From Spirochaetia bacterium (lineage in GTDB: Bacteria > Spirochaetota > Spirochaetia > UBA9216), in assembly GCA_963675665.1 (NCBI GenBank), contig OY776510.1, forward strand, positions 1,760,001-1,824,000: a DNA stretch of 64,000 nucleotides, in the 5' to 3' direction. Below, one piece after another: positions 27,992 to 63,427 of the stretch. The first letter of the stretch is position 1; each line of letters begins with the position of its first letter. Both the position numbers and the translations under genes were made by a program. The notes beneath the pieces are model-generated. The model made no database searches and was not told the DNA's origin. It worked only from the letters and a program-made list of their open reading frames with translations.

Positions 27992-28021
27992 ATACTATCC
28001 CTTAATTTCGATATATGTCAA
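27992..28021 (-). promoter_or_regulatory. Sigma70 promoter
   Basis: TTGACA-N18-TAGTAT. Confidence 0.7.
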
Positions 28022-28036
28022 CACTTTTTTATGAAT

Positions 28037-28909
28037 TCATAACAAAAAGCTTTTTCCTGTGAAGAAAAAATCAATTCCTGAACCCAATTCTTCTTTTAGC
28101 ATCATTTTTGCCCTGTTTCCGGTACAGTGTCCCGTGAAATAAAGCGGATGATTCGTCTGCTGTATGCGGTTATCGGATGTCAAATGTTTCAGCTCTTCAG
28201 CAGTTTTCAGAATAGCCTGATCAAATTCTGTTGAAATATTCTGGATATCGGGCAGGTGAAACCCTCCTGCAACAGCCGCAAGTTTTTTTCCCGGAAAAAG
28301 ATTAAAAGTATGTCTGATTATTGCAAGAATATTGTTGTGAGAGCATCCTGACAGAATAACAAGATCGTCGTCTCTTTCAATCACTATAAAGATCTCATGT
28401 TCAAAAGTTTCTGTACTTTCACCGTTTTGGTCGTGGAGAAAGAGTGAATTGTCGTTGAATATCGGCCCCCTGTCGGGTATCTCGCTGCATGGAATAATAT
28501 GAATCCCGGGTGCGGGTTCTATTGCCGTATCAATGAAGCTGAAGCGGTTTTCATGTTCCTTTAAAATTCCGGTTTCTATTCCAATATATCTCGCGGTTCC
28601 CCTTTTACTGGTACTGTAGTAAACAGGCCGTTTGCAGTCTTTATGAAGATATACGGGAGCTTTCTTGTTTGCATCTATAAAAGCCGGCAACCCGCCGCCG
28701 TGATCATAATGCGCGTGAGAAACAACACAGAATTCCACATCAGCAAGATTGATGTTGAGTCTTTTTGCATTTTCGGCAAAGCTGCTGCTTTGACCTGTAT
28801 CAAACAGAAAAAATGATTTTTCGGTTTTTACCAGTAACGACAATCCGTGTTCGTTCAGCAGATCCGGTCCCGGTTTATCATCAATAAGAAATGTAAGTTC
28901 AGTCGACAT
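28037..28909 (-). CDS. MBL-fold metallo-hydrolase
   Basis: EHGLS, FDTG, SHAHYDHGGG, GCSH, GGFHL, GHCTG. Confidence 0.9.
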   Translation of the reverse strand: MSTELTFLIDDKPGPDLLNEHGLSLLVKTEKSFFLFDTGQSSSFAENAKRLNINLADVEFCVVSHAHYDHGGGLPAFIDANKKAPVYLHKDCKRPVYYSTSKRGTARYIGIETGILKEHENRFSFIDTAIEPAPGIHIIPCSEIPDRGPIFNDNSLFLHDQNGESTETFEHEIFIVIERDDDLVILSGCSHNNILAIIRHTFNLFPGKKLAAVAGGFHLPDIQNISTEFDQAILKTAEELKHLTSDNRIQQTNHPLYFTGHCTGNRAKMMLKEELGSGIDFFFTGKSFLL

Positions 28910-29114
28910 TTTTCTGTTCTGCCTGTTGTTTAATAAAAATATGCTCTTTGCGGACTTCTGTAATAAGATCCTTAACCACCCATTCCCTGTTAGTGTCGGT
29001 GCCCATTGCAAATGCAGTTTCAGAAGGTTTTTCAATCACTGATTTAACCGCACGCATAATTACAAGAGTTTCATCCTGTGTAAAACCATTAATAAAAATT
29101 ACTTTATCTTCCAT
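28899..29114 (-). CDS. Small conserved protein, DUF3783-like
   Basis: INGF...FAM.T.TN.EW...DLI.E...EH pattern. Confidence 0.75.
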   Translation of the reverse strand: MEDKVIFINGFTQDETLVIMRAVKSVIEKPSETAFAMGTDTNREWVVKDLITEVRKEHIFIKQQAEQKNVD

Positions 29115-29153
29115 GCTGATGATTATAACATAAAAACCGGGGATTATTCATCC

Positions 29154-29818
29154 TGTGTTCAGCCGAAAAAAACGTGCACGCGCCGGGCCGCGCGCCGCAA
29201 AAAAACGGCTTCGCTTCGCTGCAGATGTTTTTTCACGCCGCACGGTCTTGCGCGAAGGACGAATAACTGCGGCTGAAAAACAAGGAAAAATCGCTGGAGG
29301 TTTTATGTTTAAAGGGCGCGTTTGTTTTTGCGGAGCAGCTTTTGGGTATTGCATATTTTGTGTTCAGCCGAAAAAAAGTGTACGCGCCGGGCCGCGCGCC
29401 GCAAAAAAACGGCTTCGCTTCGCTGCAGATGTTTTTTCACGCCGCACGGCCTTGCGCGAAGGACGAATAACTGCGGTTGAACAATAGAGAAAGATCATCG
29501 CAGTCTTTATGTTTAAAGGGTTTATTTGTTCTTGCGGAGCAGTTTTTGGGTATTGCATATTTTGTGTTCAGCCGAAAAAACGTATACGCGCCTGACCGCG
29601 CGCCGCAAAAAAACGGCTTCGCTTCGCTGCAGATGTTTTTTCACACCGCACAGTCTTGCGCGAAGGACGTATAACTGCGGCTGAAAAACAAGGAAAAATC
29701 GCCGGAGGTTTTATGTTTAAAGGGTTTATTTGTTCTTGCGGAGCAGTTTTTGGGTATTGCATATTTTGTGTTCAGCCGAAAAAACGTATACGCGCCTGAC
29801 CGCGCGTCGCAAAAAAAC
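29154..29818. repeat. Tandem array of ~204-bp units (3.25 copies)
   Basis: Units start TGTGTTCAGCCGAAAAAA at 29154, 29359, 29563 and 29767. Confidence 0.97.
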
Positions 29819-29850
29819 AGGACGGTTTCCCGGGTTAGGAAACCGCCCTG
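29818..29850 (-). terminator. Stem-loop downstream of aor
   Basis: CAGG-A-CGGTTTCC...GGAAACCG-C-CCTG; reads into a T-tract on the minus strand. Confidence 0.7.
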
Positions 29851-29890
29851 AAAAATGCTGTCCTGCAAATGCCGGATTACATTTGAAACA

Positions 29891-31690
29891 CTATAATACT
29901 TCTTTGTAAGCCTCAATGAATTTTTTCTCTATGCCGAGTTCTTCAAGTTTTTCAACTGTGGGCCGGCCTTTATCGTCCCATCCGCGGTAAGCGTAGTATT
30001 CGTCCATGGCCTTGTCGAAAGCTTCTTTTGTGTAGGCAATGTCTTTCGGCGGGCCTGCTTTAAGCAGTTCCTTGTGAAAGCGTTCCGGCAGTTTGTCTTC
30101 GGTTCGGTCGAATCCGGCCATGATGTTGAACATTCTCTGCAGGTTGAAAACCCTTTCGCCGGTTTTATAGATTTTATCGGCCGGCCAGCTGCCGCCGTAA
30201 GAGAGTTCGAATAATCTGCCCAGGGTTTCGTCGTCAATCGGCCAGAAGTCGCAGACGCCCATCGAGAATTTACAGAACTGCGAGTTCTGCATGTCGGCTA
30301 CAAGTTTGCCCTTGCCTTCGAAAGTGAAAGGATCAAGTTCTCCCCATGCTTCTTCGGCAATCGGGTAGGCCGACATATGGCAGCCTCCGCGCGGCGCCGT
30401 TACGTATGCTATTCCCATCGACCACGATCCGCGCGGGTCATAACCCGGAAGTTCCAGGCCTTTTACCTGGATTGCGAAATCCTCGCCGCCGTATTTTTCC
30501 GACAGGGCTTTGGACCCTGATGCGGCCTCATCGCCTATTCCTTCGCGGTTGGCAATCTTGTGAAGCATGGCAATTGCGCCGTCGGCATCGCCGAAGCTGA
30601 TGCCGAAATCGTGCATGCCTTTTTCGGTTGCTTCCATCATGTAGGCTATTGTTCCACCTGCCGAGATAGTGTCGACACCGAGATCGTCGCAGACGGAGTT
30701 AAATTCGATTACTTTTTCACGGTTGCCCACATACAGAGACGAACCGCCGAGAACAATACTTTCGTATTCTGGGCCTTCGACGGAGGCTTTTCCGTCTACA
30801 ACATAATTTCCGCATGCAATTCCGCATGAAAAGCAGCCTTTTTTATTTTTACGGACATCCTTGAATGACTGTCCGTTGATTTTTTCAGCGTCCGCGAATG
30901 TTCCTTCCTGAAAATTACGGGTCGGAAGCAGGCCGGACTCCTGGCTGTAGTCAACCAGACATGATGTCCCGAGATCGTAGATCTCATTGTCGTCAGCGGT
31001 TACCTCATCGCGGGCGGTGACTTCTTTCGAATATTTCAGCAGCCCCTGCAGATCATTAACGTGTACATCAAGCTTTCCCCTTATTGCGATTGCCTTCAGG
31101 TTCTTGCTGCCCATGACTGCCGCCATTCCGCCGCGGCCGAGCTGCCGGTATTTCTCTGAAGATACGCAGGCAAAGGGAACAAGGTTTTCTCCTGCCGGAC
31201 CTATAGCGAGTACTTTCGTCTCTTCATCGCCCAGCTCTTCCTTGAGTTTTGCGTCGACGGCAAATGTGCCGAGTCCTTTCAGAAAAGCGGCATCCCTGAT
31301 TTCAGCCTTTTCATCGGTGATATACAGGTAAGACAGTTTGTCTGCTTTGCCTTTGATATCTACCGCGTCAAAGCCTGCATATTTAAGCTCCGCGCCGGTA
31401 TGCCCTCCGACGGAACCGTCCGTTATTGTGCCTGAAAGAGGTGATTTCGTAGTCATGGCAAGCTTGGAAGAACAAGAAACAATTGTTCCGCCCATAATTG
31501 AAGCCGTCAGTACTACCTTGTTGTCGGGAGAAAAGGGATCAGTTTTCGGGTCAACATCTTCAATCAGTATCCTTGAGCCGAGGCCTTTCTGCCCCGTATA
31601 TAATTCAACCCATTCTACCGGTGTTTCCTCTTTACTTATTGTTCCGGAACTGAGGTCGATTTTCAGTATTTTCCCCATTAAGCTGTTCAT
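29891..31690 (-). CDS. aor: Aldehyde:ferredoxin oxidoreductase (tungstopterin family)
   Basis: TKSPL, LKYAGFD, IGPAGE, GRGG.AAVMGSKNLKA, CFSCGIAC, GPEYE, DDLGVD, DPR, RGGCH. Confidence 0.96.
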   Translation of the reverse strand: MNSLMGKILKIDLSSGTISKEETPVEWVELYTGQKGLGSRILIEDVDPKTDPFSPDNKVVLTASIMGGTIVSCSSKLAMTTKSPLSGTITDGSVGGHTGAELKYAGFDAVDIKGKADKLSYLYITDEKAEIRDAAFLKGLGTFAVDAKLKEELGDEETKVLAIGPAGENLVPFACVSSEKYRQLGRGGMAAVMGSKNLKAIAIRGKLDVHVNDLQGLLKYSKEVTARDEVTADDNEIYDLGTSCLVDYSQESGLLPTRNFQEGTFADAEKINGQSFKDVRKNKKGCFSCGIACGNYVVDGKASVEGPEYESIVLGGSSLYVGNREKVIEFNSVCDDLGVDTISAGGTIAYMMEATEKGMHDFGISFGDADGAIAMLHKIANREGIGDEAASGSKALSEKYGGEDFAIQVKGLELPGYDPRGSWSMGIAYVTAPRGGCHMSAYPIAEEAWGELDPFTFEGKGKLVADMQNSQFCKFSMGVCDFWPIDDETLGRLFELSYGGSWPADKIYKTGERVFNLQRMFNIMAGFDRTEDKLPERFHKELLKAGPPKDIAYTKEAFDKAMDEYYAYRGWDDKGRPTVEKLEELGIEKKFIEAYKEVL

Positions 31691-62019: not shown

Positions 62020-62064
62020 GAAATATTTTTTTATAGGAGGAATGATAAAAAGTCTTCATGAGCT

Positions 62065-62217
62065 GGTGAATTGATATACTGCCTTAACTTTAATTGAGGC
62101 AGTAAGGTTACTGTTCGACATTTTTACTGGTCCGCGAGACCGTTTAGGAGATTGAAGAGCCGTAACCGAAACATTCAATGGTCTGCGAGACCGGATAGGA
62201 GAATGGAACAATTCACC
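62065..62217 (+). ncRNA. Predicted IS110 bridge RNA
   Basis: Closing stem GGTGAATTG/CAATTCACC, a 5' hairpin, and two TGGTC-YGCGA-GACCG modules each flanked by junction-matching sequence. Confidence 0.75.
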
Positions 62218-62252
62218 GTATAGGCACTGCTTCAAACTATTGGAGATAGAAC

Positions 62253-63365
62253 ATGAAGATGAGTATTGGCGTGGATCTTCACAAAACGCAGTTTACAGTA
62301 TGCCTTTTAAGTGAAGACCGAAAAATTGATCAATTGGGAATGTATCCGACCAGCGGAAATGGTTATGGAGCATTTCTGAAAATGCTGGATGAATATTGTG
62401 AAGAGGAATATGAGTTGAGAGCAGCGGTGGAAACAACCGGGAATGCCCGTTATTTCCGCAATAAACTGTTAAAGGCTGGAGTCGAAGTGGTTGTAGTGAA
62501 TACTTTGAAATTCAAGGTAGTGAATGAATCTGTAAAAAAGACAGACAAACATGATGCACGCACCCTGGCGGAGTTTCTTGAGAAAGACATGCTGCCTGAA
62601 TCGATATTATGTTCCCAAGAGAGTGAGGATATTCGAAGGGTGCTGAAATCCAGGTCGATACTGGTAAAATCTGTTGTGTCGTTAAAGAACCAGGTGCATG
62701 GCTTATTACTTGGTTATGGAATAGAGACCAAACGCGGACAGCTGCAGAGTAAAAAAGAAAGGCAGCGAATCCTGAACGGTCTCGAGGACCACGACTTTTA
62801 CGGAAGCGCTGCCAAAACGGTAATACCGTTACTGGATATGATAGATAATCAGGCATCGCAAGTCAAGCAGCTTGAAAAGGTTTTGGCTGAGCTTGTGGAG
62901 GACGATGAAGATGTTGAGCTTCTGCAGACAATACCAGGCGTGGGTCTAATAACAGCAGCAACAGTAAGAGCCTATACAGACGATATCGGCAGATATGATA
63001 GTGCGAAGAAATATGCAGCAAACGCCGGGCTTGTGCCATGGGTGCAGAACTCAAATATGACAATACATCATGGACATATAACAAAGCGTGGGCCTGTAGA
63101 ACTGAGGACAGCCTTCGTACAGATGGTGATGGGAATGGTTCGTATGCAAAAGAAGACCGGGACGTACCGAATAATGACGAAGTATGCAGCGATGAAGAAG
63201 CAGAAAGGCTCGGGTAAGAGTGTAATAGCTGCCGCCCGCAAGATGAGCACTTTGGTATATACAATTTTAAAAACCAGAGAGCCGTTTGATCCGATGAAAA
63301 TGGCTTTTAGAAAAGAATACAGGGAAATGCAGGCAGCAGCATGGGAAGCTGTAATGGTCGGTTGA
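62253..63365 (+). CDS. IS110 family DEDD transposase/recombinase
   Basis: GVDLHK, VETTG, KTDKHDA (DEDD); TIPGVG, AGLVP...S, ITKRG...LR, AARK. Confidence 0.96.
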   Translation: MKMSIGVDLHKTQFTVCLLSEDRKIDQLGMYPTSGNGYGAFLKMLDEYCEEEYELRAAVETTGNARYFRNKLLKAGVEVVVVNTLKFKVVNESVKKTDKHDARTLAEFLEKDMLPESILCSQESEDIRRVLKSRSILVKSVVSLKNQVHGLLLGYGIETKRGQLQSKKERQRILNGLEDHDFYGSAAKTVIPLLDMIDNQASQVKQLEKVLAELVEDDEDVELLQTIPGVGLITAATVRAYTDDIGRYDSAKKYAANAGLVPWVQNSNMTIHHGHITKRGPVELRTAFVQMVMGMVRMQKKTGTYRIMTKYAAMKKQKGSGKSVIAAARKMSTLVYTILKTREPFDPMKMAFRKEYREMQAAAWEAVMVG

Positions 63366-63427
63366 TATCCGACCAGATCATAAGCTTATATTTTTAGCTT
63401 GTGGTTGACTTTTTATAGGAGGAATTA

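Follow-up and report, generated by a model that had tools for sequence, protein, structure and literature searches.

The window analyzed here is the whole 64,000-nucleotide stretch of contig OY776510.1 (positions 1,760,001 to 1,824,000) of a Spirochaetia bacterium, and the element studied in it is a tandem array of long hairpins located between aor, the gene of an aldehyde:ferredoxin oxidoreductase, and a small DUF3783 gene. It is the only array found by Tandem Repeats Finder in the whole window (29154–29818, period 204, 3.3 copies, 91% matches, no indels, score 1097), in agreement with the 3.25 units of 204 bp of the original prediction, which had been made from the letters of the sequence and a list of open reading frames (ORFs). 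A separate repeat search gave three copies of 244 nt, with 90–92% identity, at the same place. Each unit is made up of an imperfect hairpin of about 121 nt and an AT-rich linker of about 83 nt, close to the long inverted repeat and the linker of about 80 nt that had been predicted. The features of the region are as follows, with folding energies in kcal/mol (RNA parameters):

28899–29114, minus strand: DUF3783 gene (71 aa), downstream neighbour.
29154–29818, minus strand: tandem array, 3.3 × 204 bp; minus folds better and is the sense strand for the genes on both sides.
29158–29278, minus strand: long hairpin of unit 1 (about 121 nt), −54.1 on the minus versus −52.1 on the plus strand.
29206–29227, minus strand: apex module of unit 1, with loop type v1 (CATCTGCAGCGAAGCGAAGCCG) and an A6C/GU7 closing stem.
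29362–29482, minus strand: long hairpin of unit 2, −53.3 (minus) versus −51.0 (plus).
29410–29431, minus strand: apex module of unit 2.
29566–29686, minus strand: long hairpin of unit 3, the most strand-asymmetric, −56.8 (z −5.9) on the minus versus −41.3 (z −2.3) on the plus strand.
29614–29635, minus strand: apex module of unit 3.
29279–29361, 29483–29565 and 29687–29765, minus strand: AT-rich linkers, of a sequence unique in the genome.
29176–29195, 29382–29399, 29586–29603 and 29790–29807, minus strand: predicted terminator-like local hairpins in the 3′ arm (GC-rich stem, then U-run; consensus scan).
29766–29818, minus strand: partial unit, only the 3′ arm in the minus-strand reading, which begins exactly at the T-run of the aor terminator.
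29818–29850, minus strand: intrinsic terminator of aor, a 14-bp stem followed by T7; two sister species (G005 and G003, see below) have a similar terminator at the same place.
29891–31690, minus strand: aor (AFOR_N/AFOR_C), upstream neighbour.
29305–29487 (60 aa), 29509–29595 and 29713–29799 (28 aa each), plus strand: candidate small ORFs behind GGAGG-N4-ATG.

Every unit forms a single hairpin, with TTCAGCCG/CGGCTGAA as outer arms and, as had been predicted, with overlapping GCGAAGC motifs (two) in the minus-strand loop. The predicted better closing of the stem on the minus strand was clear for unit 3, where the direction of the asymmetry was the same with DNA parameters (−30.8 on the minus versus −23.8 on the plus strand), and marginal for units 1 and 2. 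Copies 1 and 2 differ mainly at unit positions 120–148, after the hairpin, while copy 3 is a mosaic, equal to copy 1 at positions 120–148 and to copy 2 at 164–186, both points having been noticed at first reading. Concerning the base differences said to preserve pairing, the change from G29391:C29450 to A29595:T29654 is real and compensatory, a single event among three copies, but the neighbouring change from G29389 to T29593 breaks one pair. The terminator-like local hairpins are a fold alternative to the long hairpin; in the consensus scan of the region, whose calls are predictions only, six rows corresponded to five distinct sites (four in the array plus that of aor), versus a mean of 2.4 in shuffled sequence. 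As the partial unit starts at the T-run of the aor terminator, the terminator hairpin stands there in place of the 5′ arm and the apex. Pieces of the unit were found in contigs of four public runs from two studies, and a contig of another strain runs from the hairpin through the linker into the next unit, so the array is not an assembly artefact of one data set, which had been named as a possible refutation. The public contigs break inside the array and none spans the whole of it, the copy number of 3.3 resting on the present assembly.

The source genome (G000, 5.15 Mb) was compared with sister species of the same genus (G001, G003, G004 and G005). In G005, aor is followed by its terminator, 74 nt and the DUF3783 gene, whereas the gap in the source genome measures 699 nt; the search for an empty site, proposed beforehand, thus had a positive outcome, and the array can be considered a lineage-specific insertion followed by amplification. 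In G003, the gap between the two genes holds two other genes. The end of the array shows a similar T-run followed by CGG..GAACA, which resembles native G005 sequence, and the start of the linker bears a loose likeness to the native post-terminator sequence of the same species. The DUF3783 gene seems to have its own promoter after the array, as suggested by a TATAAT-like box (29122–29127) located about 7 nt before its ATG and kept in sister species, which was read by eye and was uncalled by the consensus scan.

The search for other copies in the genome, also proposed beforehand, was equally positive. The central 30 nt or so of the hairpin (v1) occur at four further intergenic sites of the source genome with 94–100% identity, and a 22-nt core, with up to two mismatches, has seven copies, three of them in the array. 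The four sites and the energies of their folds (better strand versus the other one, kcal/mol) are:

Site A, about 551.9 kb: −72.5 versus −47.8.
Site B, about 1357.7 kb: −47.3 versus −30.6.
Site C, about 818.4 kb: −67.6 versus −57.1.
Site D, about 2106.7 kb: −45.1 versus −35.2.

At all four, the better-folding strand corresponds to the minus strand of the window, and the flanks differ in sequence yet form hairpins; BLAST comparisons among the v1 loci found nothing in common beyond 28–40 nt around the apex. The strand-specific, structure-conserving element that had been proposed is therefore present, and in multiple copies well beyond the window. Site A is empty in G001, G003 and G005, site B in G005 and G001, site C in G001 and G003, and site D in G001, G003 and G004. 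Several copies, with filled and empty sites among relatives, are what characterizes miniature inverted-repeat transposable elements, or MITEs. The junction of site D is a recurrent landing place, because hairpins occupy it in G000 and in G005, where the loop is of another type (v2), and genome G002 has an unrelated insertion of about 380 nt at the same spot. Another observation concerns the region of site C (818.4–819.9 kb of the source genome), which extends from a MarR-like gene to metF and contains, besides the hairpin, extra HEPN-like and PIN-like small genes; the same gap measures 35 nt in G001 and about 115 nt in G003, and a 40-nt repeat of this region is found again in G003 and G004.

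A census of long hairpins in the source genome by ungapped scanning gave 89 clusters. Together with a relaxed apex pattern scan it recovered known copies and added three loci that share the GAAAAC/GUUUUC closing stem but have different loops: v3 at 161.2 kb (pattern scan), and v4a and v4b, at 202.4 and 3832.5 kb (ungapped scan). A stricter scan for A-runs and T-runs was too rigid, with no known copy among its 45 top-ranked rows. Relatives of v4 are found in G004 (at least 13 scored, out of 48 candidates), with 71–81% identity over about 180 nt and a different loop. The G004 family is about 290 nt long and has sharp ends with a 19-nt terminal inverted repeat (TIR), the hairpin being formed by an internal third copy of it; in seven of the eight copies read, 8 bp of the target are directly repeated. 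The long hairpins of G004 are thus true MITEs, with TIR and target site duplication (TSD). The TIR pattern, with up to three mismatches, was counted 102 times in G004, 12 in G005, eight each in G001 and in the source genome, and six in G003. Homology to the G004 MITE (z 3.1–8.0; 0–2 of 200 shuffles reach the score) extends to the arms of site C and, at site B, to the 3′ arm, although these two hairpins carry the apex of the array. From these comparisons there is one scaffold with three tips and one tip on several scaffolds, so the apex is a conserved module exchanged between scaffolds. The relation to MITEs, and the presence of the apex in other phyla described below, had been missed in the first reading of the sequence.

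The tip consists of an A-rich/U-rich closing stem, a purine-rich internal loop of 7 × 6 nt and a stem of two pairs capped by a GAA-type triloop, i.e. a CGAAG mini-hairpin. Over the 34 distinct copies compared, the 12 positions that adjoin the loop were paired in 313 of 408 cells, versus 118–196 when the partner was slid by one to three positions. In the mini-hairpin, every copy has C:G as the inner pair (34/34), and the outer one is G:C in 25 copies, A:T in seven (six in G061 and one in G062, the genomes introduced below) and mismatched in two. The change from G:C to A:T is compensatory.

Concerning the distribution of the v1 core, it is absent from all 60 relatives searched, five of the same genus included. 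A cross-species scan was run on one genome per species, with a core containing two N (18 of 20 letters specified). As scans of collections used exact words only, which miss variants such as the ACGAAGT form outside the genomes scanned with mismatches, their counts are lower bounds. The matches listed correspond to 40 loci, 25 of which are isolated matches without a hairpin, while 14 (16 matches) belong to one actinobacterial metagenome-assembled genome (MAG) of Ca. Aldehydirespiratoraceae (G061) and one to a Clostridiales MAG (G062). In these two MAGs the match is the tip of a long hairpin in 15 of 15 loci, and with mismatches allowed the copies amount to 28 and two, respectively. A fourth lineage is represented by one of three metagenome matches (one contig), which is also a hairpin tip. 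Among 151 genomes of the order of G061, only G061 itself has the core, and its hairpin stems were not found in 80 genomes of the family, where three short weak matches belonged to other sequences. Outside the source genome, then, the v1 tip was seen in a single species per lineage among those searched. G061 has six pairs of copies in direct tandem, 126–211 nt apart, so the tandem arrangement recurs in the hairpin family. Viral contigs contained no exact match to the apex, and in phage and plasmid collections a 40-nt apex query gave matches at E ≥ 2 only. The best match, in the small Acinetobacter plasmid pBspH1 (NZ_CP055283.1, 674–701, non-coding, upstream of rep), shows on a short A/U stem a v1-like tip that deviates by a deletion and a mismatch, and with E = 2 it may be due to chance. 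As a separate observation, a relative of the actinobacterial MAG (G224) has a near-perfect palindrome of more than 100 nt (−182 kcal/mol over 248 nt) that is unrelated in sequence to the hairpins considered here. No match to the core was found in a literature search by sequence, and the proposed Rfam scan (release 15, E ≤ 1) gave no described family for positions 28000–31000 of the window or for 10 other apex loci.

The strand preference of the hairpins follows transcription. Predicted G-U pairs in 18 hairpins number 140 on the sense and 37 on the antisense strand, or about 49 versus 9 when each independent locus or family is represented by one hairpin (W3, A, B, C, D, v3, v4a and one G004 copy), and the sense fold is better by 10–29 kcal/mol in 16 of the 18; in the stem of site A, 10 of 56 predicted pairs are G-U. 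Five loci of the source genome have both neighbouring genes in the same direction, and in all five the sense strand folds better, three further loci being uninformative as they lie between divergent genes; in G061 it is so in three out of four. With the replication origin at about 0.85 Mb and the terminus at about 3.55 Mb, as estimated from GC skew, the folding strand is the lagging-strand template in 5/8 loci, i.e. there is no replication bias. The orientation with transcription, the lack of replication bias and the sense excess of G-U pairs, taken together, favour a constraint acting on the transcript.

Two of the sites are informative about the origin of the stems. The 3′ arm of site D shows complementarity to the final codons and stop of the gene upstream, a segment conserved in G005, and then to the first 7 nt of the apex; since it mirrors the end of the local gene plus the tip, it must have been copied from a template on the spot. 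In site A, a −35-like box that three sister species possess without any hairpin is incorporated into the perfect 12-bp stem at the outer end. Judged from their sequences, the arms of both sites match the product expected from template-switch (fold-back) copying, and template switching is described as a way in which hairpin stems can arise (PMC8794818).

The reading that we prefer, with a probability of roughly one half, is that the array consists of tandem copies of one MITE-like repeat, from a family of long hairpins under constraint on the sense strand, which would probably function as structured RNA within the transcripts of neighbouring genes. The array would have arisen by local tandem amplification of one long (120–180 nt), strand-specific, intergenic hairpin repeat, non-autonomous and MITE- or REPIN-like, and it may have grown by unequal exchange between copies, as suggested by the mosaic third copy. 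The stems would be built in part locally, by fold-back copying of flanking DNA. Read through within neighbouring transcripts, the elements would be constrained as RNA hairpins and could serve as 3′-end or intercistronic structures, by blocking exonucleases, by being cleaved by double-strand RNases or by giving extra termination; the four terminator-like hairpins behind the aor terminator may insulate aor from the DUF3783 gene. Bacterial MITEs of 100–200 bp are described as giving transcripts that form long stem-loops, those of NEMIS being targets of RNase III, while ERIC changes mRNA stability in an orientation-dependent manner (PMC2229807).

Several points weigh against this reading. Some concern mobility: the array hairpin lacks a clean target duplication (there is only a T-run at both ends, with 7/8 bases alike) and clear TIRs matching a known insertion sequence (IS), having only 8-nt outer arms; its arms match no other element, which is also true of those of sites A, D and v3; and no parent transposase was identified, the search for a TIR-flanked one being limited to the count of the TIR pattern. 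Others concern the strand: the asymmetry is nearly nil in units 1 and 2 (about 2 kcal/mol with RNA parameters), folds with DNA parameters keep the strand preference, which therefore fits single-stranded DNA (ssDNA) as well as RNA, and the G-U excess could be enlarged by a C to T mutation bias of the non-template strand. As to transcription, the array lies behind a strong terminator and the consensus scan called no sigma-70-like promoter inside it, so that read-through may be low. Finally, an identical apex is found on unrelated stems and in four lineages, something for which ordinary MITE biology gives no explanation.

The rival that survives best, although it is unlikely, is that the hairpins act as ssDNA, as attC-related substrates of recombination or priming, with the apex as a signal for the integrase or for a host ssDNA factor. 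The source genome has an integron integrase gene, intI (TIGR02249, 387.6 bits, 4525407–4526318), 2.7 Mb from the window, and beside it an array of attC repeats of about 140 nt with cassette ORFs mostly on the opposite strand. These attC sites contain a sub-hairpin, placed just inside a stem whose sequence is CAAAAYC/GRTTTTG in many copies. It is of the GCGAAGC type in four attC sites, where it matches the v1 tip at 15 of 17 core bases, and in about 30 sites it has a GA tandem and a UCUU loop, the motif of the v2, v3 and G004 loops. By alignment, the apex module is homologous to this sub-hairpin, and to that extent the attC idea of the original prediction pointed to a real kinship. It also counts in favour of the ssDNA rival that the integron sub-hairpin is on the strand opposite to the cassette ORFs, i.e. 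the bottom, folding strand, that DNA allows stable sheared G-A pairs and a stable CGAAG mini-hairpin, and that, as said, the strand preference is kept with DNA parameters. The evidence on the other side is more extensive. A covariance model (R1) built from 21 attC sites of the source genome was run with default filters on the window and 17 hairpin loci and gave no match at E ≤ 10; with the filters off, the best E value was 0.78, and the only match on a hairpin, over the v4a apex, reached 5.9 bits (E 8.6). The order R″ (RYYYAAC) 5′ and R′ (GTTRRRY) 3′ of attC sites is absent from the base of the unit hairpin, where the bases read GTTCAGC...GCTGAAC-like, in reverse order and with one mismatch each. 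Strand-specific folding, which is typical of attC sites, is found in the array hairpins, but a neighbourhood of cassettes or integrase is not; relative to the neighbouring genes, the folding strand is oriented opposite to that in cassettes; and the orientation follows transcription (5/5) without a bias to the lagging-strand template (5/8). Given the lack of a substantial model match and of R boxes in attC order, the long hairpins have a module in common with attC sites without being attC sites themselves, and the proposal of decayed attC cassettes was abandoned. As side observations on the integron, the attC repeats at 4417000–4524300 vary in a clearly compensatory way in the stem adjoining the first sub-hairpin (AAAAYC/GRTTTT, CCTGGC/GCCAGG, GCCCTC/GACGGC), and a repeat search in a second integron-like array near 3.90 Mb was empty at the threshold used.

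A bolder extension of the exchange of tips, which we regard as doubtful, is that the purine-rich apical module of about 30 nt (A-tract/U-tract stem, tandem G-A pairs and CGAAG mini-hairpin) itself spreads: it would colonize or replace the tips of unrelated hairpins, both MITEs and attC sites, and move between phyla, while fold-back copying of local flanks would create or extend the stems underneath.

It is rather improbable that the hairpins have no function, arising when templates switch and palindromes grow, as neutral or selfish by-products tolerated only between genes, with G-U pairs in excess by strand-biased C-to-T mutation. The arms copied from local flanks at sites D and A, the partial unit joined at the T-run and the patchy, species-specific distribution (none of 60 relatives, and one of 151 genomes of the other order, the carrier itself) would agree with it. 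On the other hand, the long stems have almost no mismatch other than the G-U excess of about 5:1, which is greater than the strand biases known to us, and template switching alone cannot account for one 20-nt apex being present in four lineages.

A free-standing, multi-copy non-coding RNA, whose apex would bind a protein or an RNA (as sponge, guide or decoy) and whose dose would be raised by the array, is still less probable. It would account for the conservation of the apex over four lineages, with the compensatory change in seven of 34 copies, the invariant inner C:G pair and the closing-stem pairing (313/408 versus 118–196/408) described above, and for the confinement of the G-U excess to one strand. 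But a promoter was called in none of the units, no Rfam family matched, and there is no shared partner gene, as Y1 transposase and IS110 are absent from the other genomes. Moreover, unrelated loops replace the apex on homologous scaffolds, which argues against one fixed function in trans. IS110 had been considered as a shared partner and was rejected, since it is absent from G061 and G062 and targets ribosome-binding sites in the source genome. The IS110-family element in question (DEDD transposase, 371 aa) has 15 copies, one in the window (about 62030–63425, plus strand) and 14 elsewhere in the source genome, e.g. at 243141 and 894117. Each copy is inserted exactly at a ribosome-binding site, with a left flank that ends in a TTTATAGGAGG-like sequence and a right end that re-creates TATAGGAG a few bases before the downstream start codon. 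A small hairpin of the form CCNGCATCCATGCNGG is found about 10 nt upstream of many ribosome-binding sites, in left flanks of several IS110 copies (e.g. near 894117, 2623033, 3765028 and 4929349) and at the site A locus of G005.

It is very improbable that the array is similar to a type I toxin–antitoxin locus, with the plus-strand linker peptide as toxin and the minus-strand hairpin as antisense RNA. Tandem repeats are typical of such loci, and two units contain a Shine–Dalgarno sequence and an ATG before an ORF of 28 residues, a third one having the 60-residue form; the predicted product is short, Cys-rich and hydrophobic, with a basic tail, and resembles a type I toxin. But each of the six bases that differ between ORF copies alters the encoded residue, the Shine–Dalgarno sequence is lost before the second copy, codon 2 carries additional non-synonymous changes in a variant strain, no such ORF occurs at the other apex-bearing loci, and a promoter was not called. 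The plus-strand ORF is probably not a gene, and the 83-nt linkers contain no credible ORF.

Finally, a repetitive extragenic palindrome (REP) or a REPIN (two inverted REPs) moved by a REP-associated tyrosine transposase (RAYT), or an IS200/IS605 end as substrate of an HUH transposase, as first proposed, would fit the long, strand-specifically paired intergenic hairpins with many copies in some genomes, but is practically dismissed by the absence of any Y1_Tnp (PF01797) match from the source genome, the two other genomes with the same apex (G061 and G062) and G005, when 6 of 14 control genomes had matches, and by a length of 3–5 times that of REP.

If the preferred reading of a MITE-like family constrained as RNA is true, the array adds one more family to the structured intergenic repeats, and does so in a spirochaete genus from which none such seems to have been catalogued. 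What goes beyond the ordinary is the modularity, with a 20-nt tip placed on unrelated stems and also on homologous stems that carry other tips elsewhere. To our knowledge, the origin of attC sites and their attachment to genes is a long-standing open question, and a hairpin family that is not part of an integron and yet shares a module with attC sites is a concrete object for testing exchange between both. The arms derived from flanks would be natural examples of stems made by template switching. Should the apex itself spread, it would be a new minimal mobile structured element and a physical link of MITE-like hairpins to the origin of attC.

Compared with known systems, the hairpins are nearest to bacterial MITEs (Correia/NEMIS, ERIC/IRU, RUP and bcr1-type), with which they share a length of 100–300 bp, a non-coding, intergenic character, an imperfect palindrome that takes the whole element, presence or absence between species, an orientation tied to transcription, G-U-rich stems and, in the relatives of G004, TIR and TSD. 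They differ in that the array hairpin has no demonstrable TIR or TSD and no parent IS and forms a direct tandem array, in that the copies in one genome share only an apex of 30–37 nt and not the arms, and in that the apex swaps scaffolds and recurs in other phyla and in attC sites. With the attC sites of the sedentary integron of the same genome they have in common the long, imperfect, one-strand hairpin and the sub-hairpin module (GA tandem/UCUU loop or GCGAAGC type), partly behind an AAAAC/GTTTT stem. Unlike those, they are without R″/R′ and L boxes, a second sub-hairpin or an attC-model match, and lie outside the cassette array, far from intI and in the opposite orientation relative to the neighbouring genes. 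REP elements, their bacterial interspersed mosaic elements (BIMEs) and REPINs with RAYT are also intergenic, transcribed palindromes, in 3′ untranslated regions or between cistrons, a REPIN consisting of two inverted repeats with a variable loop; the hairpins considered here are much longer, are not accompanied by a RAYT gene and have in the loop, in the case of the v1 copies, their conserved part. A last likeness is to the ssoA-type single-strand origins of rolling-circle plasmids, which are long, strand-specific, imperfect hairpins with little conservation but for a short motif in the terminal loop. Those origins are plasmid-borne, one per replicon, and act in replication, whereas the present hairpins are chromosomal, multi-copy and co-oriented with transcription.

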